From contig CABYVV010000005.1 in assembly GCA_902522465.1 (NCBI GenBank), positions 26,361 through 90,360 on the forward strand: a stretch of 64,000 nucleotides of DNA, given 5' to 3'. Positions within the stretch are counted from its first letter, which is position 1; every line of letters begins with the position of its first letter. The DNA comes from an uncultured Alphaproteobacteria bacterium. GTDB lineage: Bacteria > Pseudomonadota > Alphaproteobacteria > Methylaequorales > Methylaequoraceae. The position numbers and the translations under genes were made by a program. The notes under the pieces are model-generated. The model was not told the DNA's origin and searched no databases. It saw nothing but the letters and a program-made list of their open reading frames with translations. Shown piece after piece: positions 3 through 29,514 of the stretch.

Positions 3-512
3 AATTCATACGAATCTGAGGTTGGAACTTTTAAAAATTCATTGAAGACTGATACTAAAAACTTTCGTCAATTTCCAGAATGGGTAAAAAAAAATAAAAA
101 AATATTAGAAAATAAAAATATAGGAATATTTTGCACTGGTGGAATCAGATGTGAAAAAGCAAGTAGTTATATGTTAAAAATGGGTTTAAGAAATATATAT
201 CAACTAAATGGAGGAATAATAGAATATTTAAAAAAAACAAAAAACAAAAATAAATTCTGGAAAGGTGAATGTTTTGTTTTTGATGAAAGAGTAACACTTG
301 ATGAAAACTTAGAAAAAGGAAGTTATACCCAATGTTTTGCATGCAGATCACCTATCACCAAAAAAGAAAGAAAGTCATTGTTATTTAAGCCAGGAGTATC
401 ATGCCCTAAATGTCATGATATAAAAACTACAAATCAGAAAAAAAGATATAAAGAAAGACACAAACAAATTGAAATTGCCAAAAAAAAAAAAATTAGACAT
501 TTAGGTAGTTAA
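3..512 (+). CDS. trhO: Rhodanese-domain protein, TrhO/YceA-like (UPF0176, tRNA uridine(34) hydroxylase family). The 5' end is truncated by the window edge.
   Basis: Frame 3 is open from base 3. The rhodanese active-site loop CTGGIRCEKA and a C-terminal CxxC...CPKC zinc-ribbon-like tail are both typical of TrhO. The ORF track starts at the internal Met at 42. Confidence 0.6.
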   Translation, partial: NSYESEVGTFKNSLKTDTKNFRQFPEWVKKNKKILENKNIGIFCTGGIRCEKASSYMLKMGLRNIYQLNGGIIEYLKKTKNKNKFWKGECFVFDERVTLDENLEKGSYTQCFACRSPITKKERKSLLFKPGVSCPKCHDIKTTNQKKRYKERHKQIEIAKKKKIRHLGS

Positions 513-1570
513 TCACTGCCTAGTTTTGGTATTGAATATTTTTTCATTTTTTCGATTAAAGTTGTTCTATTTATTTTTAGACTGCGAGAGGCTTCTGTTA
601 CTGAACCCTTATTTTTCTTTAGAGCACCCTCAATCAAATTTAGTTCAACCTCACTAAGATGACGCCTAAGGTCAATTTTATCCATCATTTCAAACCATTT
701 TTTATAATCATTTGGATGAGGTAGAAAATTCATTTCAGTTTTTTCTGTTTTTATCTCTGTAAGTTCAGATGTCATTTCCCATAAAACATTTTTCTCATCT
801 TGATTATCAGGAAGATTGATTTTCAATAAATTTTCTTTGACATTTTTAGAAGTTATATTTTTTTTAGGGAATATTATAGCTGCCCTTTCAATTACATTTC
901 GTAGTTCTCTCACATTTCCTGGCCAAACATACTCCTGCAGTGCTTTGATGGCTGATGGATCAATTTGAGGTATAGAAGAACCACTTTTTTTTAACTCATC
1001 TAGAATGTGATCCACTAATACTGGAATGTCTTCTCTTCTTTCAGACAATGTCGGAATTTCGATAGGAAACACATTAATTCTGTAAAATAGATCCGCTCTA
1101 AAATGCCCTTCATCAATTTTTTTTTCTATATTCTGATGCGTTGCACAAATTAACCTTAAGTTGAGTTCAATTTCGTTTTTCCCACCAACGCGTTGAATTT
1201 TTCTAGTTTCAATTGCTCTTAGTAATTTAGCCTGAAGAGGAAGCGGCATATCCCCAATCTCATCTAAAAATAAGGTTCCGTTATCGGAAGATTCAAATCT
1301 TCCCTCTCGTCTTGAGTCAGCACCAGTAAATGCACCTTTCTCATGACCAAACAGTTCAGATTCTAATAGTTCTGATGGAATTGCTGCACAATTAACATTA
1401 ACCAAATCACCTTTTCTTTCTGATGAATTATGAATTGCTTTTGCAACAACGTCTTTTCCACAACCTGTTTCACCTCTTAACAAAACTGTTGAGTTAGACT
1501 GTGCAACCATACTCACTAATTTCTTTAATTGAATAGTTGCCTCACATTGGCCTTTTATTATATTTGACAT
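509..1570 (-). CDS. Sigma-54-dependent transcriptional activator. It has an AAA+ sigma-54 interaction domain and a C-terminal Fis-type HTH, but no N-terminal receiver or regulatory domain.
   Basis: Walker A GETGCGKD, the GAFTGA motif (EKGAFTGA), an arginine-finger region and a C-terminal HTH (RSLKINRTTLIEKMKKY). The protein begins directly with the AAA+ domain. Confidence 0.85.
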   Translation of the reverse strand: MSNIIKGQCEATIQLKKLVSMVAQSNSTVLLRGETGCGKDVVAKAIHNSSERKGDLVNVNCAAIPSELLESELFGHEKGAFTGADSRREGRFESSDNGTLFLDEIGDMPLPLQAKLLRAIETRKIQRVGGKNEIELNLRLICATHQNIEKKIDEGHFRADLFYRINVFPIEIPTLSERREDIPVLVDHILDELKKSGSSIPQIDPSAIKALQEYVWPGNVRELRNVIERAAIIFPKKNITSKNVKENLLKINLPDNQDEKNVLWEMTSELTEIKTEKTEMNFLPHPNDYKKWFEMMDKIDLRRHLSEVELNLIEGALKKNKGSVTEASRSLKINRTTLIEKMKKYSIPKLGSD

Positions 1571-1755: not shown

Positions 1756-2913
1756 ATGAAGGAAATATTTATAATTAAAGATTGCTTTGACTCTTATGAA
1801 GAGGTCCATAAGCATTTTTTAACAAAAGGTAATAATGTTAATGTATTAAGTTATGAAGAAGCAATCAATTTAAATTCTTCAAAATCAATAGTTGTAATTC
1901 ATCAAAAATTAGAAGAAAAAAAGGGTGGTAAATCAGAAATATTGAAATTTGCAAGGGATATTGGTTGTATTAAAATTATAACTATAAACTCTAACTATGA
2001 TAATGGATATTCAATTTGTAAAGAGATGGGTGGGGCATACATAAAGTTATCCTTCAAAAACATCGATGAAGTTATAAAAGAAATTATTTTCCAGATAATC
2101 TCAACTGAGAAATATAGTTTTTCAGATAAAAAAACAATCTGTCTTGTAAATATGGTTGAAAAGGTTGCAACAACTGACGTAACTGTTTTCATTCACGGAC
2201 CTACTGGAACCGGAAAAGAAGTAATTTCCAACCTTATACACAAGAAATCAGATAGGGCAGACAAACCATTTATTGCAATTAATTGTGCTGCTATCCCAGA
2301 AAATATGCTAGAAGCAATGTTATTTGGCCATGAAAAAGGGGCATTTACCGGTGCTTCCTCAGCAAATAAAGGGATTTTTAGAGCAGCTGATACAGGAACC
2401 CTATTATTGGATGAAATTTCTGAAATGCCATTGTCGCTTCAAGCTAAACTCCTAAGAGTCTTACAAGAAAAAAAGGTAACTCCTATTGGGGGTCAAAGAG
2501 ACATTGATGTAAATGTAAGGGTAATTGCAACTACAAATAGAGATATGTTGAATGAGGTAAAAGAGAAAAAGTTTCGAGAGGATTTATATTATAGATTAAA
2601 TGTTTTTCCAATTGAAACTCACAATTTATCTGAAAGACCAGATGATATTTTACCCATCAGCATTGCTTTACTGAATAGACATACTGAAGAAAGTTTTTTA
2701 CCTTATATAAGTGACGAGGCACAAAAAATTCTAAGAGAATACAGTTGGCCAGGAAACGTAAGAGAACTTGAAAATGTTCTACAAAGAGCAATAGTTCTAT
2801 GTGAAAACAATATAATAGATGAAAAAGACATAATGATTGATGTCTCAAAACAGAGTAATTTTTATAATAATATTCAAGAAAACTTATCAGAAAAAAAAGC
2901 AATACAAGCTTAA
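1756..2913 (+). CDS. Sigma-54-dependent activator. It has an N-terminal degenerate receiver-like (FleQ-type) domain plus the AAA+ domain, and appears to lack the C-terminal HTH.
   Basis: Walker A GPTGTGKE, GAFTGA (EKGAFTGA) and an ESFLPY...WPGNVRELEN region. The roughly 130 aa N-terminal domain has His rather than Asp at the expected phospho-acceptor position (VVIHQKL). The C-terminus ends soon after the AAA+ lid with no Fis-like helix-turn-helix. Confidence 0.8.
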   Translation: MKEIFIIKDCFDSYEEVHKHFLTKGNNVNVLSYEEAINLNSSKSIVVIHQKLEEKKGGKSEILKFARDIGCIKIITINSNYDNGYSICKEMGGAYIKLSFKNIDEVIKEIIFQIISTEKYSFSDKKTICLVNMVEKVATTDVTVFIHGPTGTGKEVISNLIHKKSDRADKPFIAINCAAIPENMLEAMLFGHEKGAFTGASSANKGIFRAADTGTLLLDEISEMPLSLQAKLLRVLQEKKVTPIGGQRDIDVNVRVIATTNRDMLNEVKEKKFREDLYYRLNVFPIETHNLSERPDDILPISIALLNRHTEESFLPYISDEAQKILREYSWPGNVRELENVLQRAIVLCENNIIDEKDIMIDVSKQSNFYNNIQENLSEKKAIQA

Positions 2914-8288: not shown

Positions 8289-8702
8289 ATGAAAAAAAAT
8301 AAATACGATACTTTCTTAATTCTTAAAAAGCTAAAAAAAAATAAATTACTTAATAATTTGAACACACTGAGTATTGAAAAAGATAAAATTAAATTAGTCA
8401 AAGAAACCTTGCATGAAATGATAGATGCTTCAAATATTGATAATTTTGAAGAAACCTTAGGTTCTACATTAAAAGTAAGAGCTAATTTTAGGCAAAATTT
8501 AATGAACAAACTTGAAATTTCATCTAATAGGCAAAATCATTTGCAGAATGAGATCAACAACAATCTCTCTGCCATTGGAAAGATTGAAAAACAAAAAGAG
8601 AAAATTCTAGAAAAAAAAAAAATAGAAGAAGAAAAAAAGCAAAATCTCATCGAATTAAAAAAAGATAATTATTTTAAACCTAAAAATTTCATTCCTTTTT
8701 AG
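8289..8702 (+). CDS. fliJ: Flagellar export chaperone FliJ.
   Basis: A 137 aa coiled-coil protein immediately after fliI. The call rests on position and size. Confidence 0.6.
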   Translation: MKKNKYDTFLILKKLKKNKLLNNLNTLSIEKDKIKLVKETLHEMIDASNIDNFEETLGSTLKVRANFRQNLMNKLEISSNRQNHLQNEINNNLSAIGKIEKQKEKILEKKKIEEEKKQNLIELKKDNYFKPKNFIPF

Positions 8703-8744: not shown

Positions 8745-10025
8745 ATGGTTGCAATAAATAATAATTTAAACGAAAAATTCAAAATTCTTACTTCAAAAAA
8801 CGCATTTGATCAAAATGATCAATTATTTGCGGAATTATTTGCATTGATGAATTCAAATGTTGTCAGCAGTAAAGAAAAAGAAGTTCTTCAGAATATCATC
8901 ACTGAATCAAATGAAAACTCGTCGGCAAAAAAACTTTTAGATTCAAGTCAAATCAATTCCATCAATAATACTTCAAAGACTTCTGTCAATGAAAATGAGT
9001 TAGCATTAGCCAAATCACTTGCGGAAATTTTTTATAAAGAACTTGGAATCGATGAAAATTCTCAATTGCCTGATAAGATTAAAGAGTTGTCGAATAAGGA
9101 AAATTTTAATATTAGACCAGATTTAAGTAAAAATGATGTTAAAGACCTACATAAATCATTAGATCTGTTTGAAGAAAAAGAGATTGAAGATAGATCACCA
9201 AGAAATTTAACAATCAAAATAGAAAAAAAAGTTTTTGACAATAGTAAAAAACAACATCATCAAATACAAATTGGTTCAAGTCTAGATGTAAAATTTAATA
9301 AAACTATTAATAAAGAACCAAAATTAAATATTTCGAAAAATGAAAAAATTTTAAATATTAGTCAAAATTCTGCTCAAGTAGAGAAAAAAATAAAAAAGAA
9401 AAATAAACAACTTGGTCAAAGTTCAAAAAGTGTATTCGAGGATATTAAAACACAAATAAATGAGGCCAAAGGAGATATAAAAACAGCACGAGTTAATAAT
9501 ATAAAAACACAAACTCCAAGAGATAATAAAATCTCAATTAAAAAGGAATCCTTTGAAAAAAATGACACTAAGACATTGGATAACAAACAAACTTTCGCAA
9601 ACCTTAACAATAAAGAATTTTTAAATTTGCTAGAAAGTAGTTGGGGAGAGAAGTTTTCTAAAATAATCAAGAATTCAGTAAACAATGGTAATAATAAAGT
9701 AGAAATAGAACTCAAACCCCACAATTTAGGAAAACTTAATTTAGAAGTTTCACTAAAAAACAATAAAACTTTCATTAACATCAGCTCGGAAAATCAAGAA
9801 GTTGTAAATATACTGAATGAAAACCTTCCTCGCTTTACTGAAATAATTGACAAAGAAAATAAATCATTTTCAAGTTTTGTTAATACTAATAATCAAAATG
9901 GTAACTTCGGTGAAAACAAAGAAAAGAAAACTGTAATTTCACAGGACAACTTAATAAAAAAGAAAAAGAATATTGAATCAAAGATTAATAAAATTAGTAA
10001 TCATAATATTGATGTGAATGCTTAA
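8745..10025 (+). CDS. fliK: Flagellar hook-length control protein FliK.
   Basis: A low-complexity N/K/S-rich N-terminal region and a C-terminal Flg_hook-like domain (VEIELKPHNLGKLNLEVSLKNNKTFINISSENQEV..NENLPRFTEII). It sits after fliJ. Confidence 0.65.
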   Translation: MVAINNNLNEKFKILTSKNAFDQNDQLFAELFALMNSNVVSSKEKEVLQNIITESNENSSAKKLLDSSQINSINNTSKTSVNENELALAKSLAEIFYKELGIDENSQLPDKIKELSNKENFNIRPDLSKNDVKDLHKSLDLFEEKEIEDRSPRNLTIKIEKKVFDNSKKQHHQIQIGSSLDVKFNKTINKEPKLNISKNEKILNISQNSAQVEKKIKKKNKQLGQSSKSVFEDIKTQINEAKGDIKTARVNNIKTQTPRDNKISIKKESFEKNDTKTLDNKQTFANLNNKEFLNLLESSWGEKFSKIIKNSVNNGNNKVEIELKPHNLGKLNLEVSLKNNKTFINISSENQEVVNILNENLPRFTEIIDKENKSFSSFVNTNNQNGNFGENKEKKTVISQDNLIKKKKNIESKINKISNHNIDVNA

Positions 10026-15748: not shown

Positions 15749-15935
15749 CTGCAGCATTTGTATGCATTTTTATGTGACATACAAAAAAAATTTTCCTTAC
15801 GGATGCAAAGCATTCGGAATAATATCAAAAAATAACCCATATTCCGAAATTAAAAAAGTTTCTGGCACAAATTGTGCACTATTTTCAAAAAAAATAAAAA
15901 ATGATAAAATAAAGATAAAAGGAAGAATTGCATGA
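15735..15935 (+). CDS. Hypothetical small Cys-containing protein, possibly a zinc ribbon. It may be spurious.
   Basis: A 66 aa ORF with CSIC...GC...NC residues. A sigma-54 promoter lies inside it, and it was kept only because the genome is so compact. Confidence 0.2.
   Translation: MNQNNCSICMHFYVTYKKNFPYGCKAFGIISKNNPYSEIKKVSGTNCALFSKKIKNDKIKIKGRIA
15863..15879 (+). promoter_or_regulatory. Sigma-54 promoter for the three-gene operon of unknown function (15932-18053).
   Basis: TGGCAC-aaatt-GTGCA with GG(15864-65)-N10-GC(15876-77) spacing, about 55 nt upstream of the ATG at 15932. Confidence 0.55.
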
Positions 15936-16657
15936 CACAACAACTTAATGCAATGCAAGAAAGCATAAAGATAGCGCTTGACGCAGCAGATGCTGCTACT
16001 GATGTAACATCTGAATACAAAAGAATAAAAAATGAATATTTAAAAACGGAGCAAAAAATGAAAGAAATCCATAAATATACTACTATCATTTTTTCGGGTT
16101 CTATTGCGACAGCAGTAATTGCAATAATCTTAACAGGATTATTATATTTTAAATCTCTATCAGAGCTAGAGGAGATGACGAGTACTAGTAGAGAAGCACT
16201 AGTTGTATTTGCTGAAAATGTTGAAAATGTTAATAAAGCAGTTGATAACATGAACTCTAGTCTTGCAAGACACACTGACCTACTCAATGCAAGCGAAGAA
16301 ATGAAAACTAAAATCGAAGAACTTTCCTCTGCCATTAATTCTAATGATAAGAAGCTAATGATTAACTTATCCAAAGAAATTACAAATTTATCTAGCGGTT
16401 TATCTAAATCAATAAAAAACGAAACCGAAAAGCTCGGAAAATCAATTCAGGAGTCAGGAGTTATGACTTCAGCTAGTGTTAATAAAGAAATTGGAAAGTT
16501 ATTGAAAGATAATAAAAAAAACCAAAATGTTAAATTATTAAAAGAACTTTCTAACAGCACTTCTTCGCTAAATGCAGCATTAGAGGCAATTTCAAGTCAA
16601 AATAAGCTTTTAGTTAAAGAAATTAAAGACCAAAAAGAAAACATTACTTTCCCATAA
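15932..16657 (+). CDS. Hypothetical membrane-anchored coiled-coil protein with a single TM segment near residue 50-73.
   Basis: 241 aa. It has a TM segment (TTIIFSGSIATAVIAIILTGLLYF) followed by a long heptad-rich S/N/K/E region. It is the first gene behind a sigma-54 promoter directly downstream of flhB. Confidence 0.6.
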   Translation: MTQQLNAMQESIKIALDAADAATDVTSEYKRIKNEYLKTEQKMKEIHKYTTIIFSGSIATAVIAIILTGLLYFKSLSELEEMTSTSREALVVFAENVENVNKAVDNMNSSLARHTDLLNASEEMKTKIEELSSAINSNDKKLMINLSKEITNLSSGLSKSIKNETEKLGKSIQESGVMTSASVNKEIGKLLKDNKKNQNVKLLKELSNSTSSLNAALEAISSQNKLLVKEIKDQKENITFP

Positions 16658-16661
16658 AAAA

Positions 16662-17444
16662 ATGGCTGAAAAAGAAGAAGGAAATTTTCTAATAAAGATA
16701 GATAAATTAGTCAATGGGAGTTATGCATTCAAGGTCTTCCTTAAACCAAATGATATCATTGTAGCTTTAGACAACCAGTTCTACACTTTTGGAGAAAAAC
16801 AATTAACCTCTGACCTTAAAGAAATAAAAACAAATCAACAAAAAGCTATTCTAACAGTTCTTCGTGATGATATTTTTTTTGACTTAAAAGTTGAAAAAAG
16901 CCTTGGTTGTAAGTTCGTGACAACTACCAAAGATGAAACTACCAAAATTAAGTCTTTATATTCTTCCAGAAAAATTTACGAAACTGAAGAACTTAATGAA
17001 TATATTGCTATGCGAGATGTTTACAGAAATTATGAAATAATAGAAAATTCGAGTTCATTATCAGCGGGAATTTTTCCTCCCTTATGGCTTGCTTACTCAC
17101 AAAAATGGTGGGTGCTATTTTTATTAGTTGCGATCATGGGAATTTCTCTTTGTGTAAATTCATACCTTTTTTTATTGGGTTGGTTGCTCACCTCTATATA
17201 TTGCTACAAAGCTCAACTGAATTTGCTTTTTAGCTTTTCTATGCTTGAAGGAAAAGTTTTTTGCATGAAATTGGTTGCTAGCTCAATGGATGAAGCACAA
17301 AAAATAGTTAGACAACTTGATCCAAAATCTAAATTCAAATTCACAAAACTTCCAAATCCTCTAATTGAAGAAGTAGACGAAAAAAAGGACAAGAAAGAAG
17401 ATAAAGAAAACATTGTTGATGAAAAAGAAACTGTAATAGTGTAG
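16662..17444 (+). CDS. Hypothetical membrane protein with an N-terminal PDZ-like soluble domain, two TM helices and an acidic C-tail.
   Basis: 260 aa and translationally close-coupled to the upstream gene. The TM region is WWVLFLLVAIMGISLCVNSYLFLLGWLLTSIY. Confidence 0.55.
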   Translation: MAEKEEGNFLIKIDKLVNGSYAFKVFLKPNDIIVALDNQFYTFGEKQLTSDLKEIKTNQQKAILTVLRDDIFFDLKVEKSLGCKFVTTTKDETTKIKSLYSSRKIYETEELNEYIAMRDVYRNYEIIENSSSLSAGIFPPLWLAYSQKWWVLFLLVAIMGISLCVNSYLFLLGWLLTSIYCYKAQLNLLFSFSMLEGKVFCMKLVASSMDEAQKIVRQLDPKSKFKFTKLPNPLIEEVDEKKDKKEDKENIVDEKETVIV

Positions 17445-17453
17445 TATCAACTC

Positions 17454-18053
17454 ATGGTTGCAGATAAATATACTATACAAGCCGAGACTTTGATGAAGGC
17501 TGCAATTGAAGATTACACTGAAATAATTCAAGAAGTAAAATCTTCAGATGCAAATCTTACAACACTTAAAGGAATCCGAATAAATATCCAAGGAAAACCA
17601 AGAAGGTTAGTTGATGTTGGAGATATTAAAAAAACTGAAAATGAAAATGTTGTTCAAATACTAGTTTTTAATACTGATCATATTCCACTTCTAACCGAGA
17701 AGATTGATGAAGTAGAATTTAATTATGAAGTAGATGGACAATTTATTAACACAGACTTACCTGAACCAGGTTACAAACAATTAATGGAAGTAGTCGATGA
17801 TCTAAATAGAAAGAAAAATTCTGCCAATGCAAGATTGACAAAAGCCAAATCAGAAGCAACGACTAGAGCAAGAACAGCTCTTGAAAATGATTTTATTTCA
17901 CAGGGGGTTGCTAATGCTGTCTCGAGAAAATGTTCTGAAATGTACGAACTATACTCATCCCAAATAGACGAACTTACAATGCAAAAAATCAATGATATTT
18001 TAGGTGATGAATATTTTGAAAAATATAAAAAAGAAGAGTTAGACTTAGAGTAA
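17454..18053 (+). CDS. Hypothetical soluble protein, the third gene of the sigma-54 operon.
   Basis: 199 aa with balanced composition and no recognised domain. Confidence 0.55.
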   Translation: MVADKYTIQAETLMKAAIEDYTEIIQEVKSSDANLTTLKGIRINIQGKPRRLVDVGDIKKTENENVVQILVFNTDHIPLLTEKIDEVEFNYEVDGQFINTDLPEPGYKQLMEVVDDLNRKKNSANARLTKAKSEATTRARTALENDFISQGVANAVSRKCSEMYELYSSQIDELTMQKINDILGDEYFEKYKKEELDLE

Positions 18054-19009: not shown

Positions 19010-20194
19010 TTAATAATTTATTTCTATTTCAATTCTTCTGTTTTTTGCTCTTCCCTGTCTTGTATCATTAGATTCAACAGGTCTAGTTTCACCATAGCTT
19101 ATGGCTTTCATTCTTTTAGGATCAAGCGCTTTGTTAGTTGAAAGTTGTTGAACAACCGAGGCTGATCTTGCTGCCGCAAGATCCCAATTGTCTCTATAAT
19201 TAGAACCAAATGTCAAAGGGACGTTGTCAGTATGACCCATTACTAAAATTTCACTTCTGCCCTTTTGATTCTGCTCTGCAATCTTGGACATTATTTCTCT
19301 TGCTTTTCTAGTGAGTTCTGCAGAACCAGACTTAAATGCTCCAGCAGATCCAACAGTTATAATTACCTTGTCCTCTTCTCTATCAACATTGACTAAACCC
19401 TCTCCAATCTCTTGTTTAAGAGCAATTTTGAGTTTATCCTCTGCAAGTTCTGCCTTTTTTGCCTCCTCCTTTGCTGATTGACTCATTTCTGATTGTCCCA
19501 CACTATCCCCTTCTTTTCCTTCTGCCTCACTTTTTCCTTGGCTTGATGAAGCTGTTGCTAAATCTGCCAGTTGTTTTTCTAAACCTCCAATTAAGACTTC
19601 CGAATCTGATTTACCAGACGCAGCTTTAACCGATTCAACTGCGTTTAAGGTTTCTTGTAATAGTTGTGGTAATTCTTTTTCATCTGCCTCAGTTGGTGTA
19701 AAATTAACCACAACTTTGTTACCTAATGCCTCCACCTTGATATCACCTCTCGCGATAGCTTCTTGAATGTTTTTGGCAAGTTCTTGAGCCTCTTCTTTCT
19801 CACCATCATCTTTTGTGTTATCTTCTTTTTTTGTTTGAAGCTCAACCTTTGGCTGGTCAACCTCCGTTGTCTGTTGTTTCAAATTATCCTGAACAGCTGG
19901 CGTTGGATTTGGGCTAAAATTTAATGAAAGAATTGTTGTACCTTTTGGCGGTTCAACAACTGGGATAACCCTTTGAATACCAAAAGCATTCTTCATACTT
20001 CCACTAATTTGCTTAAATTTTGGAACGTTAAATTCTGCAAATGAAAGAATTAAAACAAAAAAGGCCATCAGCAATGTTGCCATATCAGCAAATGTTGCCA
20101 TCCAGGCTGGCGCTCCTTTTGGGGGACATTCTGGACATTCATGTTCCTCTTCTTCATTTGAAGTCTCTTGATTTTCGGTTTTCTCCTCAGCCAT
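19010..20194 (-). CDS. motB: Flagellar stator protein MotB, with an OmpA-like peptidoglycan-binding domain.
   Basis: An N-terminal TM segment (WMATFADMATLLMAFFVLIL) and a C-terminal OmpA_C domain (ILVMGHTDNVP...NRRIEIEI). A long acidic linker separates them. Confidence 0.85.
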   Translation of the reverse strand: MAEEKTENQETSNEEEEHECPECPPKGAPAWMATFADMATLLMAFFVLILSFAEFNVPKFKQISGSMKNAFGIQRVIPVVEPPKGTTILSLNFSPNPTPAVQDNLKQQTTEVDQPKVELQTKKEDNTKDDGEKEEAQELAKNIQEAIARGDIKVEALGNKVVVNFTPTEADEKELPQLLQETLNAVESVKAASGKSDSEVLIGGLEKQLADLATASSSQGKSEAEGKEGDSVGQSEMSQSAKEEAKKAELAEDKLKIALKQEIGEGLVNVDREEDKVIITVGSAGAFKSGSAELTRKAREIMSKIAEQNQKGRSEILVMGHTDNVPLTFGSNYRDNWDLAAARSASVVQQLSTNKALDPKRMKAISYGETRPVESNDTRQGRAKNRRIEIEINY

Positions 20195-20204
20195 GATTTA
20201 AACT

Positions 20205-20978
20205 TTAACCCCCAGCTGCAGCTTCTATTAGTTTTTGTTTTTCTTTTGGTGGGAGATTTGCAACAAGTTGATCTTGAATATTTCTTGGACTTTCTCCTCT
20301 AGAAATAAACTGTAAACCTGTAATAATCATTTCCCTGTAAGTTGTTTCGTAAGCTGAATATCCTTTTAATTTAATAACAATAGGCATGAAAATCGTATTT
20401 GCAATCATAGCTCCGTAAAGCGTGGTCAAAAGAGCAACTGCCATTGCAGGACCGATTGCTTTTGGATCTGCCATGTTACCTAGCATAGCAACAAGGCCAA
20501 CCAAAGTTCCAATCATTCCCATTGCAGGGGCTATATCAACCCAAGATTGAGCACAACCAATATTTTTCTCATGACGAACTTGCATAGCTTTAAGCTCTTT
20601 TTTTAATTGGATGGTTAACTTTGATTCATCTGCCCCGTCTACCAACATTTGCAAACCACCATCAAAAAACGGATCGGGTGTTTCCTGTCCCTCTAATGCC
20701 ATCATTCCATCTTTTCTTGCAATACCTGCTAATTCTACAATCCTTTCAATTAGTTCGTCCATTTTTTTTACTGGTGGTTTAAAAGCCTTACCAAAAGCTC
20801 CGAAAGAACCTAAATAAACAGGTAATGGAGCTGTATACATAACTGCAAAAAAGGAACCACCAAAAACAATTAATATCGATGGGACGTCAATATATGACCC
20901 CAATCCACCAGCTGAAATCATTGCACCAGCAATCATTCCTATTGTACCTAAAAACCCGATTAAAGTAGCTAAATCCAT
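20205..20978 (-). CDS. motA: Flagellar stator protein MotA (PomA-like).
   Basis: A 257 aa MotA/TolQ/ExbB family protein with four TM segments, located immediately upstream of motB. Confidence 0.85.
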   Translation of the reverse strand: MDLATLIGFLGTIGMIAGAMISAGGLGSYIDVPSILIVFGGSFFAVMYTAPLPVYLGSFGAFGKAFKPPVKKMDELIERIVELAGIARKDGMMALEGQETPDPFFDGGLQMLVDGADESKLTIQLKKELKAMQVRHEKNIGCAQSWVDIAPAMGMIGTLVGLVAMLGNMADPKAIGPAMAVALLTTLYGAMIANTIFMPIVIKLKGYSAYETTYREMIITGLQFISRGESPRNIQDQLVANLPPKEKQKLIEAAAGG

Positions 20979-22559: not shown

Positions 22560-24026
22560 ATGCAAATTTCACAGAATCTTAAGTTAAAGCAGAGTCAATC
22601 ACTAGTTATGACTCCTCAACTTCAACAAGCAATAAAATTACTTCAACTTAACAATCTTGAGTTAAGCAACTTGGTTAACAAAGAATTAGAAGAGAACCCG
22701 TTTCTTGAAAATGAAAATGAAAGCGTTGAATTAGAGGATAACAAAAATAATGAATATGAAGAAACAAATGACCTAAAGGATTCTTTTGAAAATGGTGAAT
22801 CTATTTCAGATGAACCAAAAAATGAAGATTATGAAAATAGATGGGATACCGAAAATAATTATGAAAGTTTTAAAAAGGGAAATTCTTTAGATCATAATGA
22901 TGTTGGAAGTGTAATAGAACAAACTCTTAGTAATAAAGTCTCACTGAAGTCTATTATTCAAAGCCAAGCTGATCTCCAATTTCAATCTAAAGAAGATAAA
23001 AGAATCTCTGAAATTTTAACAGATTATATCGATGAGAATGGATGGATTACAGAAAACTTAGTTAATATTTCAGAATTCAGTGGTTTTAAAATTTCTGAGA
23101 TTGAAAGAATTTTAAAAATTATGCAAACATTTGAACCTGACGGAATTTTTGCAAGGAATTTAAAAGAATGCCTTAAAATTCAACTAAGAAACAAGCAAAT
23201 GCTTGTTAACACATCTGAAGTAATAATAGATAATTTAGAAATGTTAGGTAATGGAAATATTAAATCACTTCAAAAGCTAACGTCCCTTAAAGAGGAAGAA
23301 CTTAGAGAACAAATAAAAATTATTAGGTCTTTAGATCCAAAACCAGGTAAAAAATATTCAGATGATAATTCAAATATCTTTCATCCTGATGTTATTGTTT
23401 CGAGAGTCAATTCCGATTGGTCTGTAGAACTTAATGAAAGCACTCTCCCCAAGATAACTATTAATGAAGACTACGTGAAAGAAATTGAAAGTCTCAAATG
23501 CAAAGAATCAGACAAAAAATTTATTAATGAATCTCTAAATTCAGCTAAATGGTTATTAAAAGCCATTCAACAAAGAAATTTAACTACCTTAAAAATTAGC
23601 TCTGAAATAGTTAATCAACAGAAACAATTCTTTGAAAAAGGCAAGAAATTCCTTAAACCAATGGTTCTAAAGGATGTGGCCAAAAAAATTAATATGCATG
23701 AAAGTACAGTTAGTAGAGTAACTTCAGATAAATTAATGCTTACTCCACGAGGAATCTTCGAAATGAAATTGTTCTTCAGTGCCTCAATTAGTAGTACAAA
23801 AAAAGGTGAGACTCACTCAGCTGAATCTGTGAGAGAATCACTAAAAAAATTAATAAGTTCTGAACCTGTAAATAACCCCTTGAGTGACGAAATGCTTGTG
23901 GAAAAGCTACAAGACGAGGGCATCGATTTAGCGAGAAGAACGGTTGCAAAATATAGAGAATTATTAAATATTCCAGCATCCTCTGTGAGAAGAAAAATAA
24001 TGAAGATTCAAAATATTAACTTATAA
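22560..24026 (+). CDS. rpoN: RNA polymerase sigma-54 factor RpoN.
   Basis: An N-terminal region I (MQISQNLKLKQSQSLVMTPQLQQAIKLLQLNNLEL), a core-binding domain, the HTH and the RpoN box (ARRTVAKYRE). Confidence 0.9.
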   Translation: MQISQNLKLKQSQSLVMTPQLQQAIKLLQLNNLELSNLVNKELEENPFLENENESVELEDNKNNEYEETNDLKDSFENGESISDEPKNEDYENRWDTENNYESFKKGNSLDHNDVGSVIEQTLSNKVSLKSIIQSQADLQFQSKEDKRISEILTDYIDENGWITENLVNISEFSGFKISEIERILKIMQTFEPDGIFARNLKECLKIQLRNKQMLVNTSEVIIDNLEMLGNGNIKSLQKLTSLKEEELREQIKIIRSLDPKPGKKYSDDNSNIFHPDVIVSRVNSDWSVELNESTLPKITINEDYVKEIESLKCKESDKKFINESLNSAKWLLKAIQQRNLTTLKISSEIVNQQKQFFEKGKKFLKPMVLKDVAKKINMHESTVSRVTSDKLMLTPRGIFEMKLFFSASISSTKKGETHSAESVRESLKKLISSEPVNNPLSDEMLVEKLQDEGIDLARRTVAKYRELLNIPASSVRRKIMKIQNINL

Positions 24027-24097: not shown

Positions 24098-24268
24098 TTA
24101 TGAATATCTAACTCTCTTAAATTCTTTAGTAGAATGATCTAAAAAATATGATAGAGGAAACACATCTGTCTTTACGTGTTTATCTTCGTCAAAATGAGTT
24201 ATCTTTATCATGGGATTTAATGTTGTTACACTATAATTTTTTGTATTAGATTTAATTTCTTCTTTCAT
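24098..24268 (-). CDS. Hypothetical 56 aa protein, not in the ORF track.
   Basis: MKEEIKSNTKNYSVTTLNPMIKITHFDEDKHVKTDVFPLSYFLDHSTKEFKRVRYS. A strong AGGAG RBS lies 7 nt upstream, and the gene is co-oriented with the upstream lytic transglycosylase. Confidence 0.3.
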   Translation of the reverse strand: MKEEIKSNTKNYSVTTLNPMIKITHFDEDKHVKTDVFPLSYFLDHSTKEFKRVRYS

Positions 24269-24320
24269 TTTTTCTCCTTTTATCGTTAAATTTGCAAAAA
24301 TCTTGCCAAATACAAAAAAG

Positions 24321-24926
24321 TTAAATCTTTTCTTTCTCTAAAATTTCCTTAAAAAACTTTACCTTTTGCTTATTTTTTTCAAAATAATTAGTTTTAATAA
24401 TTATTTTTTTTTGCCTTAAATTATTCCAAAAAGAGTATACTTTTTTTAAATATATTTTCTGCCTATACGGGATCGATGAATGATATCTGGAGATAGCTTC
24501 ATTCCAAGATTTGTGCCTCTTAAATAATTTATATAAGAAACTAGCTGCGTATTTTACATTTTGTTCAGGTTCAATCATCTGAGATACATTTTCAAAATTA
24601 TTCAGATGGTATTTAGTATTGATTTGCATGCATCCAACATCAATACTTTTTTTATCAGCATTTTTTTCTAAATAATTTAATACATCTTCTTTCCTATCGA
24701 AATAAATTGACTTACCCGATACGTTTAATGTCCAGGGCCATGATGAAAAACCATTTTTTTCTTTTTTTATGCCGGATTCTACCAAAGAAATTGAAGTCAG
24801 AAGGTTATTAGGTAAATTAAAAGCTTTACCATATTTTTCAGTATAAAAGTTACAACTTTTTATATTTTCTGAATTTGAATTAGTGTAAGGAAATATAAAA
24901 AAAAATAATGTGATAATTTTTTTCAT
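24321..24926 (-). CDS. Secreted lytic transglycosylase of the SLT-domain family.
   Basis: A signal peptide, the SLT catalytic region (LTSISLVESG with the catalytic Glu) and the downstream motif IDVGCMQIN. Confidence 0.7.
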   Translation of the reverse strand: MKKIITLFFFIFPYTNSNSENIKSCNFYTEKYGKAFNLPNNLLTSISLVESGIKKEKNGFSSWPWTLNVSGKSIYFDRKEDVLNYLEKNADKKSIDVGCMQINTKYHLNNFENVSQMIEPEQNVKYAASFLYKLFKRHKSWNEAISRYHSSIPYRQKIYLKKVYSFWNNLRQKKIIIKTNYFEKNKQKVKFFKEILEKEKI

Positions 24927-24958
24927 ACAAAAGTATGAGCAAATTAAATGCCAAATAT

Positions 24959-26419
24959 TTATTTTTTTATTATAGAACTACTTAAAAGATCTCTACCAAC
25001 AGATATAAAGTTATAAGGATTGACAGATTTTCCATTTACTTTTACTTCATAATGCAAGTGAGCGCCAACTGCTCTTCCTGTGGATCCCATTCTTCCAATG
25101 ACCTGACCTTCAGTTACATTTGCTCCTTTTTTTACACTAAGCCTATGCAAGTGACCATAAAGAGTTGTAACTCCATGTTTATGTACGATTTTGATAGTTT
25201 TTCCGAAAGATCCATTTCTTCCTGAAAACGAAACATATCCATCTGCAGGCGCTCTCACTTCCTCTTGCCATGTTCCAGCCATATCAATACCGTGATGCAT
25301 TTGTTTTCTTTTTGATTTTGGATGAATTCTATAACCGTATGGACTTGACACGTAATAATACTGCATTGGAGGTTTCAAAGGAACATATATTATAGCATCT
25401 TTCAAATCCTGAAGAATCTGGAATCTTAAAGAGGTGTAATCCAGTAACTCCTCATTATCTCTATAGTTGATATTTTCTGTTAGTAAATTATTTATTTTAT
25501 GTATATCTAACTTTTCTGGTTTTAATTTTAATTCTACGAATACATTCATCAACTGAATAATTTCTGAATCTATTTTTTTGGTGAAGTTAATAATTTTTAG
25601 TTTTTTTGTTCTGGGAGCAACAAATGGAATCACTGGTAATTTGTTGTAAGCAAATTTATTATTATTTATTTTTGAAATTTTGGTAGAACCTACTTTACTC
25701 TCGATTGCGTGTTCCATAGCAATCATTTCTGGACTCGCAATTTTTGAGAATTGTTCGAATTTTACTTCATCTGAATGATTTACATCATCTGGAAAACTTA
25801 TTGAAATATTCCCCATTAAATTTTTAAGATTATCTATTTTTTCTTTTATTTGAATTTTGACATTATTAGATTTTTCTTTGTTTGTTGTTAATTCGTCTTC
25901 TTTATTTATGACAATTTGAATTTTTTCTGAGTTTAGTACTTGATCATTAATGGTTTTTTCTTTGGCAAGATCTTTTAGGGTTTGAATTTCTGTTTTTGTA
26001 AAACTTTGACTTGTTATTTCAGTATTTTTGTAAGTTAAATACGCGAAGAATGATGAAAAACCTAAAAATACTAATTGTAACATTTTAAAGGTGAAGACTA
26101 AAACCAAAATGAAAGCCGAAATATAGTGCTTGATATTAAATACCACCTCAATTGGTCCTCTTTTCGTGAAATATAAAAATCTCCTCTCTTTTAATAAATG
26201 TTTTAAATTTTTGGAAAACACACTTAAGTTTTTAGAAAAAACACTTGTTTCACCGAACCTTTGACTAGACTTTAGGTTTCTTAACAAACTAGATTTAATG
26301 TTATCATACGTAGATCTTTTGAAGAGATTTTCCATATTGATTATTTTAGATATAATACAATTACTAACATCATATTTGTTAGAAGTTGCATAAGCATAAT
26401 CAATAGCATTAGTTTCCAT
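24959..26419 (-). CDS. M23 family (LytM-type) peptidoglycan endopeptidase with an internal TM segment.
   Basis: A C-terminal M23 domain with HHGIDMAG...GRMGSTGRAVGAHLHYEV (HxxxD and HxH zinc ligands). The TM helix is near residue 100-130. Confidence 0.85.
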   Translation of the reverse strand: METNAIDYAYATSNKYDVSNCIISKIINMENLFKRSTYDNIKSSLLRNLKSSQRFGETSVFSKNLSVFSKNLKHLLKERRFLYFTKRGPIEVVFNIKHYISAFILVLVFTFKMLQLVFLGFSSFFAYLTYKNTEITSQSFTKTEIQTLKDLAKEKTINDQVLNSEKIQIVINKEDELTTNKEKSNNVKIQIKEKIDNLKNLMGNISISFPDDVNHSDEVKFEQFSKIASPEMIAMEHAIESKVGSTKISKINNNKFAYNKLPVIPFVAPRTKKLKIINFTKKIDSEIIQLMNVFVELKLKPEKLDIHKINNLLTENINYRDNEELLDYTSLRFQILQDLKDAIIYVPLKPPMQYYYVSSPYGYRIHPKSKRKQMHHGIDMAGTWQEEVRAPADGYVSFSGRNGSFGKTIKIVHKHGVTTLYGHLHRLSVKKGANVTEGQVIGRMGSTGRAVGAHLHYEVKVNGKSVNPYNFISVGRDLLSSSIIKK

Positions 26420-26895
26420 GAAATAGGATTACTAACATTTAAACTAAACTGAGGGAAAGGTTGCTTTTCATCAATTTTTACTGATTGTTTGTTCTCATCT
26501 ACCACTCTTTCATTCTGATAGTCATCATATTTTTTGAAACTTTCTTTGGATTCTTGTTTATTTCTTTTAAAATAGTTGGATTCATTGAGGTTTTCATTTT
26601 TTTGTTTATTATCTTTATCAATTTTAGCAGTTGTAATATAAACTTTATCTTCAATTGATTTTGATTTATTTTCTTCGGTTTTTGAAACATTTAATTTAGC
26701 TGAAATTTTAGCTTCGATGTTTTCTGTTTTAAAAACTTCATTATCAGTCTTAGTTTTTTGGTTAGGAACTCGATTATCGTTGATATCGTTAGCAGGTTTT
26801 TTTCTATCTTCCACACCTCCTTTTTGTCCTGGAACTGTAATCTGATTTCTCATCTTTTCTATTCTATCTCTTATATCAATAACTTGTTCTGTCAT
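26341..26895 (-). CDS. Hypothetical charged, low-complexity protein with a C-terminal hydrophobic anchor.
   Basis: 184 aa. It overlaps the M23 gene start by 79 nt in another frame. It may be a separate tail-anchored protein or part of a mis-framed N-terminus. Confidence 0.3.
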   Translation of the reverse strand: MTEQVIDIRDRIEKMRNQITVPGQKGGVEDRKKPANDINDNRVPNQKTKTDNEVFKTENIEAKISAKLNVSKTEENKSKSIEDKVYITTAKIDKDNKQKNENLNESNYFKRNKQESKESFKKYDDYQNERVVDENKQSVKIDEKQPFPQFSLNVSNPISWKLMLLIMLMQLLTNMMLVIVLYLK

Positions 26896-27023
26896 AATAA
26901 TATCAAACTACTATATTTTATTAAAAAAGTAAATTTATGCATTTAGTAAGCCAAAATTAATAATAAAAACTTTTTTTTTAAATTTTTTTATGATAATCAT
27001 AAACTTTTACAAAGGTTTAAAGT

Positions 27024-27039
27024 TGGCAAAATAATTGCA
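27024..27039 (+). promoter_or_regulatory. Sigma-54 promoter for the three-bactofilin operon.
   Basis: TGGCAA-aataa-TTGCA with perfect spacing. T-rich tracts lie upstream. Confidence 0.6.
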
Positions 27040-27050
27040 CTAATTTAAAA

Positions 27051-27473
27051 ATGTTTTCAAGAGACTCTGATAAAGTATCCAAAACCTCAACCTCATCTAG
27101 CGTTATAGGTACGGAAATGCAAATTAATGGCAATATCAAGTGCAGTGGTAAACTAGTTCTTAAAGGAATGGTAAAAGGTAACATAGAATGCGAACACGTT
27201 CACATTTCAGCAGAGGGAACCCAAACAGGAAATATTAAGGCAATCGAGTGTATTATAGGAGGTAAGTTTACAGGAGACGTAGTCGCCGATTCACTGGCAT
27301 TTGAATCCAATGCAAATATTAAAGGAAATATGTATTATAATAGTCTGAGCGCAAGACCTGGATCAAATCTTGAAATTCACCTCTTTAGGGGGCTTGAAAA
27401 AAGAATTGAAGATAAAAGTCCAACTAAAGATAAAACAAAAAAAAGCACAAATAAAAAAAATAAAGGAACCTAA
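27051..27473 (+). CDS. Bactofilin (DUF583) paralogue 1.
   Basis: Repeating beta-helical windings G-x-I/V-x-G...(INGNIKCSGKLVLKGMVKGNIECEHVHISAEGTQTGNIKA...) and a K-rich C-tail. The start may instead be the ATG at 27114, because the ATG at 27051 sits at the predicted transcription start. Confidence 0.8.
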   Translation: MFSRDSDKVSKTSTSSSVIGTEMQINGNIKCSGKLVLKGMVKGNIECEHVHISAEGTQTGNIKAIECIIGGKFTGDVVADSLAFESNANIKGNMYYNSLSARPGSNLEIHLFRGLEKRIEDKSPTKDKTKKSTNKKNKGT

Positions 27474-27476
27474 AGT

Positions 27477-27833
27477 ATGGCAGATAATCAATCAATAATA
27501 GGAAAAGGAGCAATCTTTAAGGGAAAAATATCAAATGCTTCTACTATTGAAATTAACGGTAGAGTTGAAGCTGATATTAAATCTGATAAGGTAACTCTCG
27601 GAAAAGCTGCATCACTTGAAGGATCAATTATATCTGAACTGGTTGTAATTTCAGGAAATTATCAAGGAAAGATTAAGGCAGATTCTGTATGGTTAACAGA
27701 CTCATCAGTAATTACAGGGGAAATTAATTATAAATCTTTGCAAATGGATAGAGGTGCAGCACTTAATTGTAAAATTATTCATAACTGGGATGAAAACAAG
27801 TTGAGAAATAAAAAAGAGGAGTCTGATAATTAA
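27477..27833 (+). CDS. Bactofilin paralogue 2.
   Basis: The bactofilin repeat core (IIGKGAIFKGKISNASTIEINGRVEADIKSDKVTLGKAASLEGSII...). It lies 3 nt after paralogue 1. Confidence 0.8.
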   Translation: MADNQSIIGKGAIFKGKISNASTIEINGRVEADIKSDKVTLGKAASLEGSIISELVVISGNYQGKIKADSVWLTDSSVITGEINYKSLQMDRGAALNCKIIHNWDENKLRNKKEESDN

Positions 27834-27835
27834 AT

Positions 27836-28153
27836 ATGAGTGATGTAACATATATAAATAAAGATCTTTTAATGGAGGGCTCACTTGAGTCAAAAGATGG
27901 ACAGGTTGTAATTGCAGGTCATTATAAAGGAAATATTATTGCAAGGTCAGTTATAATTGAACAATCAGCTTTGTTCAATGGAAATATAAATGCAGAACAT
28001 CTCAAGGTTGAGGGCAAGGTAGATGGGGATATTACCGCAGATCTTCTTGAAGTATCTAATAGTGGGGTTATTGATGGTAAGTTAAAGACAAATTCTTTAT
28101 CCGTTGATACCGGCGCACAAATATCAGGAAATGTTGGAAGAATCTCTACTTAG
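27836..28153 (+). CDS. Bactofilin paralogue 3.
   Basis: The bactofilin repeat core (VVIAGHYKGNIIARSVIIEQSALFNGNINAEHLKVEGKVDGDITADLLEV...). It lies 2 nt after paralogue 2. Confidence 0.8.
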   Translation: MSDVTYINKDLLMEGSLESKDGQVVIAGHYKGNIIARSVIIEQSALFNGNINAEHLKVEGKVDGDITADLLEVSNSGVIDGKLKTNSLSVDTGAQISGNVGRIST

Positions 28154-28396
28154 TTCAAATTTCTTTTGAGTCTCTATACAGTTTTTAAAAAAATTAATTG
28201 TGTGTTCCTCACCATCAAATTTTTCCAGATTTATAGACGCAAACCTTCCAGCCGCAAGTGAAACTGCCCACAAATCACTTTTATCTATAGCATATTTACT
28301 TAAAATTAATTCAACTTCATCTCTTATCTGTTCCATTTTTTCCCTTTTTTTCTTAATCAAACAAGGAAATTTAATAACATTATTTATTTTTTTCAT
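28124..28396 (-). CDS. Hypothetical small protein.
   Basis: 90 aa with balanced, charged composition. It is convergent with the bactofilin operon. The overlapping plus-strand ORF at 28200-28451 has antisense-like F/L/I/S composition and was rejected. Confidence 0.45.
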   Translation of the reverse strand: MKKINNVIKFPCLIKKKREKMEQIRDEVELILSKYAIDKSDLWAVSLAAGRFASINLEKFDGEEHTINFFKNCIETQKKFELSRDSSNIS

Positions 28397-28477: not shown

Positions 28478-28867
28478 ATGGATATGAAAAAAAAACCTCA
28501 AAATCTTCCAGTTAAAGCTAAACAAAATGAAGTAATAACTGTTAACCAAGAGAAATCTAATACTTTAGATATTACTCAAAAACTTCACCATCTAAAAAAC
28601 AGAGCAGATGTAAGAAAATATCTTCCAGATATTTTAGGAAGAGTCTTAGCTAGAATTTGGATTGATTCTGACTTCAAAGAAGAATTTGAGAAAGATCCCC
28701 AAAAAACACTTGAATATAATGGTGTTTATCTTCCAGAAGATATGTCTATAGAGTTCCAAAAACCTAATTCAGATAGACCAAGAATTGTCGTGTATGAACA
28801 ACGACCTAACTCTAGATTTAAATTAAGAGTTCTTTATCTACAACTCATAATGATGGCAGGTAGGTGA
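28478..28867 (+). CDS. NHLP-type (nitrile hydratase leader peptide-like) domain protein with no core peptide.
   Basis: Residues 45-110 align with NHLP leaders: ARIWIDSDFKEEFEKDPQKTLEYNGVYLPEDMSIEF matches AKAWKDAEYKQRLLSDPKAVLEEELGMQLPEGLEVRVVEE. The protein terminates as ...MMAG-R-stop, where a Gly-Gly cleavage site and a core peptide would normally follow. Confidence 0.5.
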   Translation: MDMKKKPQNLPVKAKQNEVITVNQEKSNTLDITQKLHHLKNRADVRKYLPDILGRVLARIWIDSDFKEEFEKDPQKTLEYNGVYLPEDMSIEFQKPNSDRPRIVVYEQRPNSRFKLRVLYLQLIMMAGR

Positions 28868-29514
28868 AAAAATATATTTTTATAATTTTGTTCAATTGCG
28901 TCATTACAAACGTTTTTGCAGACAACCATAAAGATATTAAAAACAATATTATTGATGACGAAAGTTATTATAAAAAAGGAGTAGGTTTTTATGATAATGG
29001 GGAATTTAAAAAATCATTCATTGTTTTTTTCAATCTTGCTGAGAAAGGAAATAAGGATGCTATTTTTAACTTATCAAACATGTTTTATGAGGGAATTGGA
29101 ACAACGCAGGACTTCAGCAAATCTCTGGAATACACATGGCTGTGTTCATTAAATGGAAATAAAAGATGTTTAAAAAAGATCGAATCTATAGAAGAAAAGT
29201 TAGACAAAGATGAGTTCATTAAAATATCTCAAAGAATTCCAGAAATTTTAGAAAAGGATTTTGTAAATTTAAATGACAAAATTTCAGCTTTCAAACTAGG
29301 TTATTGGTATGAAAAAATTTCACCAGAAATTGATTTTGAAAAATCATATTTATGGTATTCTGTTTCTGTAACTGCTGGCGTTTATAAAGCAATGAAAATG
29401 AGAGATAGAGTTGGAAAGATGATTGAAAAAAAAAAAATTTTAGCTATTCAGGAACAAGCAAATCAGATTTATACTAAAGATATGTATTTTAACTCAAAAA
29501 AGGAAGATGAATGA
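28864..29514 (+). CDS. Secreted Sel1-like repeat (TPR-like) protein.
   Basis: A GTG start, a signal peptide (…NVFA-DNH) and Sel1 repeats (AIFNLSNMFYEGIGTTQDFSKSLEYTWLCSLNG; LGYWYEKISPEIDFEKSYLWYSVSVTAG). Confidence 0.6.
   Translation: MKKYIFIILFNCVITNVFADNHKDIKNNIIDDESYYKKGVGFYDNGEFKKSFIVFFNLAEKGNKDAIFNLSNMFYEGIGTTQDFSKSLEYTWLCSLNGNKRCLKKIESIEEKLDKDEFIKISQRIPEILEKDFVNLNDKISAFKLGYWYEKISPEIDFEKSYLWYSVSVTAGVYKAMKMRDRVGKMIEKKKILAIQEQANQIYTKDMYFNSKKEDE

Follow-up and report, generated by a model that had tools for sequence, protein, structure and literature searches.

Can a bactofilin cytoskeleton be drawn into the regulon of the flagellum? The question is raised by a locus in a 64,000-nucleotide (nt) stretch of DNA from an uncultured Alphaproteobacteria bacterium (contig CABYVV010000005.1; the whole stretch is called the window below), in which three tandem bactofilin genes, bacA, bacB and bacC, lie behind a sigma-54 −24/−12 promoter-like element and near a flagellar gene cluster. 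An earlier note, made from the letters of the window, had placed the triad in the flagellar regulon, with a polar or basal-body-associated scaffold as one plausible role. Based on the analysis below, we lean, with modest confidence, towards the view that the locus is a bactofilin/M23 peptidase module for cell-wall shaping that was co-opted into a flagellar sigma-54 hierarchy of the FleQ/FleT type, the sigma-54 promoter of bacABC itself being lineage-specific. The triad is made up of the following genes.

27051–27473, plus strand: bacA, a bactofilin of 140 amino acids (aa; PF04519, 70.4 bits) with a membrane-targeting-like MFSR N-terminus and a Lys-rich C-terminal tail.
27477–27833, plus strand: bacB, a bactofilin of 118 aa (PF04519, 75.6 bits) that lacks an N-terminal tail and ends in an acidic one.
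27836–28153, plus strand: bacC, a bactofilin of 105 aa (PF04519, 78.9 bits) consisting of the core only, without tails.

Against a Pfam cutoff of 27.9 bits for PF04519 (Bactofilin, DUF583), all three proteins passed, covering profile positions 1 to 94, 96 or 97 of 98 at E-values of 1.6e-19 to 3.4e-22, and a sequence search matched them over ~90 residues to the solved bactofilins 2n3d (Caulobacter crescentus BacA) and/or 6ria (Thermus thermophilus) at E-values of 1e-3 to 5e-9. The tandem arrangement and coordinates in the earlier note were confirmed, with gaps of 3 nt (bacA–bacB) and 2 nt (bacB–bacC) in the list of open reading frames (ORFs), and bacA, bacB and bacC encode bactofilins with differentiated termini, sharing a pairwise identity of just 25–31%. 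The note's claim that a three-paralogue bactofilin operon is undescribed did not hold, as such an operon is already known in Myxococcus xanthus (bacNOP, PMC5703909).

To follow the locus across species, one genome per species was scanned, giving 32 related loci (cited by L numbers) from uncultured marine Alphaproteobacteria, i.e. single-cell and metagenome-assembled genomes labelled variously Alphaproteobacteria, Rickettsiales or Pelagibacteraceae. The triad and its synteny were universal in these 32 species, all of them apparently flagellated, and the gene order was identical wherever the contig allowed: motA ... rpoN – U56 – SLT – M23 – U184 <> bacA-bacB-bacC – U90(−) – NHLP-like – Sel1 ... 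phosphoenolpyruvate (PEP) carboxylase, where <> marks divergent genes and SLT a transglycosylase gene. The survey of relatives for synteny that the earlier note had suggested thus found the triad beside the flagellar loci rpoN and motA wherever the contig reached them. Three orthologue groups with distinct termini were kept in 32/32 species, BacB being the best conserved (72–96% identity), and a homology search with BacA returned, among the matches listed, in-clade sequences only, on contigs of up to 1.49 Mb. BacA opens with MFSRDSDK, of which M1, F2 and the basic residue 4 fit the bactofilin membrane-targeting consensus MFSKKKK (PMC12448750) and position 7 is acidic; since all 32 species share the N-terminus MFS[RK]D, the start at 27051 is taken as correct. 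A start at Met23 (27117), which would give a sigma-54 transcript a leader, was rejected, because conservation in the 32 species extends over residues 1–22, most of all MFS[RK]D, and the Pfam domain runs from residue 17.

Two observations at the edges of the triad are recorded here. In L002, positions 1–540 hold a GC-richer unrelated ORF fused to a bacA that is truncated and divergent (59% identity), next to bacB and bacC that are 97–100% identical; this is probably a chimeric metagenome assembly or a recombination junction, and L002 was left out of the comparison. U90, a conserved 90-aa ORF (28124–28396, minus strand), runs towards bacC and shares the final 30 nt of that gene; it occurs in all related loci at 40–78% identity, family-profile scans gave no match for it, and a terminator scan found no terminator between it and bacC.

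The sigma-54 element ahead of bacA, its distribution and a second conserved block upstream of it are as follows.

27024–27039, plus strand: sigma-54 −24/−12 promoter-like element TGGCAAAATAATTGCA, TGGCAA-AATAA-TTGCA, ahead of bacA.
Clade I (the window, L006–L012, L014–L016 and L018): both half-sites of the bacA element invariant, with variation in the spacer and the flanks; distance to the ATG 27 nt (26 in L018).
Clade II (L024, L030 and L031): bacA element at −46, −51 and −41, respectively, where the intergenic regions are longer.
Sister clades and outgroups (18 species): bacA sigma-54 element absent.
26971–27000, plus strand: conserved block T9-AA(A)-T7/8-[AG]TGATAA[TG]CAT, seen in a by-eye intergenic alignment in almost all species.

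The bacA element fits 10 of the 11 core positions of TGGCAC-N5-TTGCW, with GG and GC 10 nt apart. The strict motif TGGCA-N6-TTGCW occurred five times in the window versus 0.17 expected, a count reached in 0 of 100 shuffles, and a count against the consensus, with GG and GC obligatory, yielded six sites at ≥10/11 core positions versus 0.3 expected. All five strict copies were intergenic and faced a start codon, the first base of which lay 13–35 nt past the motif end. The GC content is 24–36% in 2-kb windows of the stretch, so motifs containing G or C rarely arise by chance. Across 11 aligned clade-I sequences, TTGGCAA....ATTGCA was invariant and the flanks were variable. Judged from this enrichment and conservation, the near-consensus element that the earlier note had pointed out (TGGCAA-N5-TTGCA) is a phylogenetically footprinted promoter-like element and not a chance match. 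Neighbour-joining trees built from PEP carboxylase and from concatenated BacABC agreed in placing the promoter-bearing species in two separate clades, for which the most parsimonious account is that the putative bacA sigma-54 promoter was gained twice.

On the source of the element, the L024 bacA promoter (9552–9574) was found to match the L024 U56 promoter (6898–6876) in 22 of 23 nt, a stretch that takes in 7 nt of 5′ flank, and in clade II two bacA promoters out of three (L024 and L031) carry the TGGCAGG subtype typical of U56 promoters. Copying of an existing promoter, and not de novo origin, may have given rise to clade-II bacA promoters. Promoter duplication was set aside as the source of the bacA element: the suggestive match is in L024 alone, and clade I has none.

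The second block reads TGTGATAAT in L006, L007 and L018 and TGTTATAAT in the outgroups L036 and L037; it is degenerate in two outgroups, and L035 is without a recognisable copy. With its T-tract and extended −10-like element, it is probably a housekeeping-type promoter of bacABC; alternatively, it could be an intrinsic bend or an enhancer serving the divergent sigma-54 promoter. A generic sigma-70 scan was uninformative in this 29% GC DNA (18 sites versus 12.3 expected), the terminator scan returned none, and Rfam gave no RNA family across the whole window. Within the block, ATGATAATCAT (26990–27000) resembles the Escherichia coli Fur-box core. A Fur box was nevertheless rejected, since the motif shows no significant repetition in the window (seven loose matches versus 2.3 expected, one of them exact) and decays to plain TATAAT-like hexamers in the outgroups; the site was kept as the −10-like block.

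This block brings in a first rival, namely that the bacA sigma-54 motif is non-working, or a mere binding site or roadblock, and that bacABC is a housekeeping shape determinant transcribed constitutively from the T-tract/−10-like promoter. Such a promoter would serve almost all species, including the 18 without the sigma-54 motif, in which the triad evidently manages without sigma-54 control, and the motif would then sit in the 5′ untranslated region of that transcript. A non-working motif, however, fits poorly with half-sites that are invariant in 12 species amid a variable spacer and two variable flanks, with a distance to the ATG fixed at 26–27 nt and equal to the universal geometry of the transglycosylase promoter (see below), with an independent motif at another position in the second clade, and with a chance expectation of 0.17 per window. 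We regard this rival as rather improbable.

For the bacA element, the −12 C lies at 27038 and the ATG at 27051. A sigma-54 transcript, as predicted from these positions, should start at ~27050, 0–2 nt before the ATG, and would be a leaderless mRNA.

What the triad works with is suggested by the operon on its other side, which the earlier note had missed and which carries a universally conserved sigma-54 promoter-like element.

26938–26953, minus strand: sigma-54 promoter-like element TGGCTTACTAAATGCA of the U184–M23 operon, TGGC-N8-[AG]TGCA in 31/31 sequences.
26341–26895, minus strand: U184, an orphan tail-anchored protein without Pfam or NCBIfam family, first gene of the M23 operon.
24959–26335, minus strand: LmdC-like M23 DD-endopeptidase of 458 aa (PF01551, 105.8 bits), starting 5 nt after U184.

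In the window and 30 loci, TGGC-N8-[AG]TGCA was kept with a variable spacer, and its first T lay 41–60 nt from the ATG. In U184, a hypervariable, K/E/N-rich linker of low complexity joins a conserved N-terminal helix to a C-terminal transmembrane segment that is invariant (PFPQFSLNVSNPISWKLMLLIMLMQLLTN.MLV.VLYLK), and the protein is clade-restricted, with 58 representatives among 1.84 billion proteins. The M23 gene, divergent from bacA, lies 716 bp away from it with U184 in between, and the same was found in every locus with a long enough contig. Its longest ORF, starting at 26419 and overlapping U184, was rejected as the gene start: the start codons of its orthologues correspond to 26335, and the overlap arises as a frame artefact from the conserved 3′ end of U184.

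In the M23 protein, the metal/catalytic residues (HxxxD, HxH) H347, D351, H395, H397, H426 and H428 are invariant, and outside the catalytic domain the best conserved part among 20 homologues is an invariant cytoplasmic block, ERRFLYFT..GPIE.VFN.KHY. The AlphaFold2 model, with a mean predicted local distance difference test score (pLDDT) of 59, places strands 51–57 and 60–66 (β-hairpin 51–66, pLDDT ~50) directly N-terminal to the transmembrane helix, part of a long helix 68–109 (pLDDT ~72–75), followed by helical periplasmic segments and the C-terminal M23 domain (pLDDT 76–93). Foldseek matched the model to the DD-endopeptidases NMB0315, ShyA and Helicobacter pylori Csd1/2/3; the best NCBIfam matches were the Campylobacter shape peptidases Pgp6 and Pgp3, partial and below cutoff, and a homology search returned, among the matches listed, in-clade sequences only. 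Modelled in this way, the protein appears to be an LmdC-like bitopic endopeptidase with intact catalytic residues and is predicted to be active.

In Hyphomonas neptunium and Rhodospirillum rubrum, LmdC is recruited by bactofilin via a conserved cytoplasmic β-hairpin, and bactofilin–M23 gene clustering, by the criterion ‘immediately upstream or downstream’, was reported in 226 species (PMC10945521). With an LmdC-like M23 operon adjoining bacABC, the present locus would be a version of this known morphogenetic module (PMC10945521), and the BacA–LmdC module is its closest known system. The two have in common an alphaproteobacterial host and bactofilin genes clustered with a gene for a bitopic M23 peptidase, in which a cytoplasmic hairpin tail (predicted here) is followed by a transmembrane helix, a helical part in the periplasm and an M23 domain that retains its metal ligands. 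They differ in that three differentiated bactofilins stand here in place of one, the M23 gene is divergent with the orphan tail-anchored U184 between it and bacA, the cytoplasmic tail has ~65 residues versus 38 in H. neptunium, and sigma-54 promoter-like elements lie on both the enzyme operon and bacABC in a flagellar-cluster setting. A looser parallel is H. pylori CcmA with its Csd peptidases: like Campylobacter with Pgp3/Pgp6, this is a motile, polarly flagellated bacterium in which a bactofilin goes with M23 peptidases (Csd1/2/3), but no model reaches cutoff here, so that orthology is not established, and no Csd5- or Csd7-like gene was recognised in the locus. To our knowledge, no sigma-54 control of ccmA has been described.

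The M23 partner also bears on a second rival, a scaffold of the BacNOP type, the clients of which would be proteins of chromosome segregation or polarity and not cell-wall enzymes. The gene arrangement is that of M. xanthus bacNOP (PMC5703909), a putative operon of three paralogues, the products of which form a heteropolymer and organise ParABS/PadC and SofG. Here, the conserved neighbours U90, NHLP-like, Sel1, U184, M23 and SLT hold no ParA-, ParB-, PadC- or SofG/small-GTPase-like domain, and the conserved partner is a cell-wall hydrolase, the M23 peptidase. We consider a BacNOP-type role very improbable.

Beyond the M23 gene, the same strand carries a second wall enzyme and a small protein, each behind its own element.

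24938–24953, minus strand: sigma-54 promoter-like element TGGCATTTAATTTGCT of the transglycosylase gene, with leaderless geometry.
24321–24926, minus strand: SltF-like SLT-domain lytic transglycosylase (PF01464, 36.3 bits) with a signal-like N-terminus in its translation.
24293–24308, minus strand: sigma-54 promoter-like element of U56, kept in 22 sequences and in most followed by an AAGGAG-like ribosome-binding site.
24098–24268, minus strand: U56, a 56-aa protein without family match, predicted to be sigma-54-dependent.

The transglycosylase promoter occupies the 32-nt gap past the M23 stop codon and was found in 28/28 sequences examined, the distance from TGG to ATG always being 26–27 nt; this fixed spacing argues that the spacing is functional. 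On this basis, a secreted protein would be made from a leaderless sigma-54 transcript throughout the clade, and more generally the conserved 26–27-nt promoter–ATG spacing would mean sigma-54-dependent leaderless mRNAs. The protein resembles SltF, the flagellar autolysin of Rhodobacter (Cereibacter) sphaeroides (PMC7277832).

How the locus would be tied to the flagellum depends on its surroundings, the relevant parts of which are listed.

509–1570, minus strand: FleQ-like enhancer-binding protein with AAA+ and HTH_8 domains, without a receiver domain.
1756–2913, plus strand: FleT-like enhancer-binding protein without a DNA-binding domain, heading the fliEFGHI(J) operon; sigma-54 promoter-like element at 1707–1722.
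8289–8702: unassigned ORF in the fliJ position, following fliE-F-G-H-I.
22560–24026, plus strand: rpoN (sigma-54), with three sigma-54 Pfam domains.

The flagellar supercluster spans 509–20978 and comprises the two enhancer-binding proteins, fliE to fliR/flhB (including fliK-L-M-N and fliO-P-(Q)-R-flhB) and motAB, with rpoN itself also counted in it. The distances stated in the earlier note were borne out: rpoN ends 3.0 kb upstream of the bactofilin operon and motA/motB (19010–20978) lie 6 kb upstream. Intergenic sigma-54-like sites were located at 1707 (FleT-like operon), 8706 (fliK), 12169 (fliO), 15863 (an operon of unknown genes), 21045 (motA), 24308 (U56), 24953 (transglycosylase) and 27024 (bacA). 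All intergenic sites and all sites at ≥10/11 fell within 1–27 kb, with only weak intragenic matches beyond, and the motif scan gave no intergenic site in 28–64 kb, a part that encodes unrelated functions (EgtB-like, lipid A acyltransferase, glycosyltransferases and asparagine synthase). The promoters of U184–M23, the transglycosylase gene, U56 and motA were conserved in every species carrying the region. That the other sigma-54 promoters in the window all serve flagellar operons, as had been claimed, holds for several of them; others would drive U56, the 15932–18053 operon and the cell-wall enzymes. Likewise, the assignment of the triad to the flagellar regulon is backed by its setting in a sigma-54-regulated flagellar supercluster and limited by a bacA promoter confined to two subclades.

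A hierarchy of this kind is known from the Fla1 system of R. sphaeroides, in which sigma-54 with FleQ activates fleT-fliEFGHIJ and FleQ/FleT activate class III genes including motAB (PMC7277832). As in Fla1, an enhancer-binding-protein gene heads fliEFGHIJ with a second one nearby, sigma-54 promoters precede motAB and basal-body operons, and a secreted SLT enzyme is encoded in the flagellar region; unlike Fla1, in the regulon of which bactofilin and M23 are not described, rpoN lies inside the cluster here and at least two promoters show leaderless geometry. A full-text literature search retrieved no paper joining bactofilin with sigma-54 and flagellar terms, and none describing a sigma-54-driven leaderless flagellar mRNA; in the accessible text of papers naming both bactofilin and RpoN, a Helicobacter biofilm hypothesis article among them, no regulatory link is drawn. 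The sigma-54 wiring of bactofilins and the leaderless geometry are therefore apparently undescribed, and for sigma-54 control of bactofilins this agrees with the earlier note.

The same surroundings can be read in a third way, with bacABC as a dedicated flagellar component, i.e. a polar or basal-body scaffold for placing or assembling the flagellum, marking the site where the two wall enzymes, M23 peptidase and transglycosylase, would make an opening for the rod. Each of the cluster's four transcription units bears a sigma-54 promoter-like element, rpoN and motAB flank the cluster in every species with a long enough contig, the adjacent SLT enzyme resembles SltF, and a bactofilin–flagellum link has a precedent in Bacillus subtilis BacE/BacF, which are needed for hook and filament assembly (PMC4627819). 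That host, however, is Gram-positive and peritrichous, and neither an M23 partner nor sigma-54 control is described there. The triad was never seen without flagellar genes among the 32 relatives, but the retrieved relatives include no non-flagellated one, so this co-occurrence has no contrast. Moreover, 18 flagellated relatives lack the bacABC sigma-54 promoter, BacABC, U184 and U56 matched no known flagellar protein family in family-profile scans, and the M23 architecture is that of the shape-determining LmdC/Csd/Pgp group, unlike any known flagellar protein. We hold a dedicated flagellar role to be unlikely; the basal-body scaffold put forward in the earlier note is a possible function that nothing found here supports.

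Our preferred reading, a wall-shaping module co-opted into the flagellar sigma-54 hierarchy, can be set out as a mechanism. BacA, BacB and BacC would co-assemble into one membrane-attached polymer, with BacA as the membrane anchor, a heteropolymer for which BacNOP is the precedent (PMC5703909). The polymer would recruit the M23 endopeptidase via its invariant cytoplasmic β-hairpin, perhaps with U184 also recruited or participating, and local peptidoglycan remodelling would lead to cell curvature or pole shaping. The enzyme side (U184–M23, the SltF-like transglycosylase and U56) would be transcribed from sigma-54 promoters, whereas bacABC would have acquired its own, downstream of an older housekeeping-type promoter, independently in two subclades. 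In the window, transcription of bacABC from this promoter would start at the ATG and yield a leaderless mRNA, like that of the transglycosylase gene. The flagellar enhancer-binding proteins would activate these promoters, so that the module is made together with the flagellum. Activators such as FleT and Helicobacter FlgR can act without an enhancer. With one enhancer-binding protein of the window being without a DNA-binding domain, a new −24/−12 element alone might suffice to join the regulon, which would ease repeated gain.

Several points weigh against this reading. The sigma-54 elements are known from sequence alone, and the leaderless start of bacA assumes the canonical 12 nt from the −12 C. 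Eighteen related species hold bacABC without the sigma-54 promoter, so sigma-54 control is non-essential to the function of the triad. The two enhancer-binding proteins of the window cannot by themselves separate flagellar from other sigma-54 control. On the enzyme side, the M23 hairpin is modelled at low confidence (pLDDT ~50), the likeness to LmdC is one of architecture, and the M23 gene is not directly beside a bactofilin gene but divergent, with U184 between.

A bolder version takes rpoN-U56-SltF-like-M23-U184<>bacABC as one flagellum-coupled pole-building machine, in which a polymer of three bactofilin subunits, made from a leaderless sigma-54 transcript within the flagellar hierarchy, would mark where M23 peptidase and transglycosylase breach the wall to let the flagellar rod through, or else curve the motile cell. 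If the DNA-binding-less enhancer-binding protein wires in any new −24/−12 element, the double promoter gain would be explained. We find this version doubtful.

Bactofilin/M23 modules are an emerging general cell-shaping mechanism, on the regulation of which almost nothing is known. The locus suggests that an abundant, uncultured marine alphaproteobacterium may turn on its wall-shaping enzymes and their cytoskeletal scaffold together with the flagellum, and sister lineages with and without the putative sigma-54 promoter offer a natural experiment on the recruiting of a structural module into a developmental regulon.

Several minor features of the window were recorded as well. The motA sigma-54 promoter-like element TGGTATTAAAGTTGCA (21046–21018, minus strand) is set in an inverted repeat, TTGGTAT ... 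ATACCAA. Most species retain this repeat, which extends over both the −24 element and the start region and might serve as an operator or form a 5′ stem-loop. Within the flagellar cluster, the operon that follows the sigma-54-like site at 15863 consists of unknown genes except for the third, which encodes a divergent protein like ribosome-recycling factor (RRF; 17454–18053, plus strand); it scored 42.8 bits with Pfam RRF, above cutoff, and 30 with NCBIfam frr versus a cutoff of 149 bits.

Downstream of the triad, 28478–29514 (plus strand) holds a gene for a 129-aa NHLP-leader/nitrile-hydratase-alpha-like protein (sub-threshold), the stop of which overlaps the start of a gene for a Sel1-repeat protein whose N-terminus is signal-like; in all related loci, these two genes keep their synteny with bacABC. 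Farther on, 40000–64000, at a GC fraction of 0.23–0.28 and without sigma-54 sites, encodes glycosyltransferases, DegT-type aminotransferases, asparagine synthase and PMT_2-like and EgtB-like proteins, and looks like a surface-polysaccharide island.

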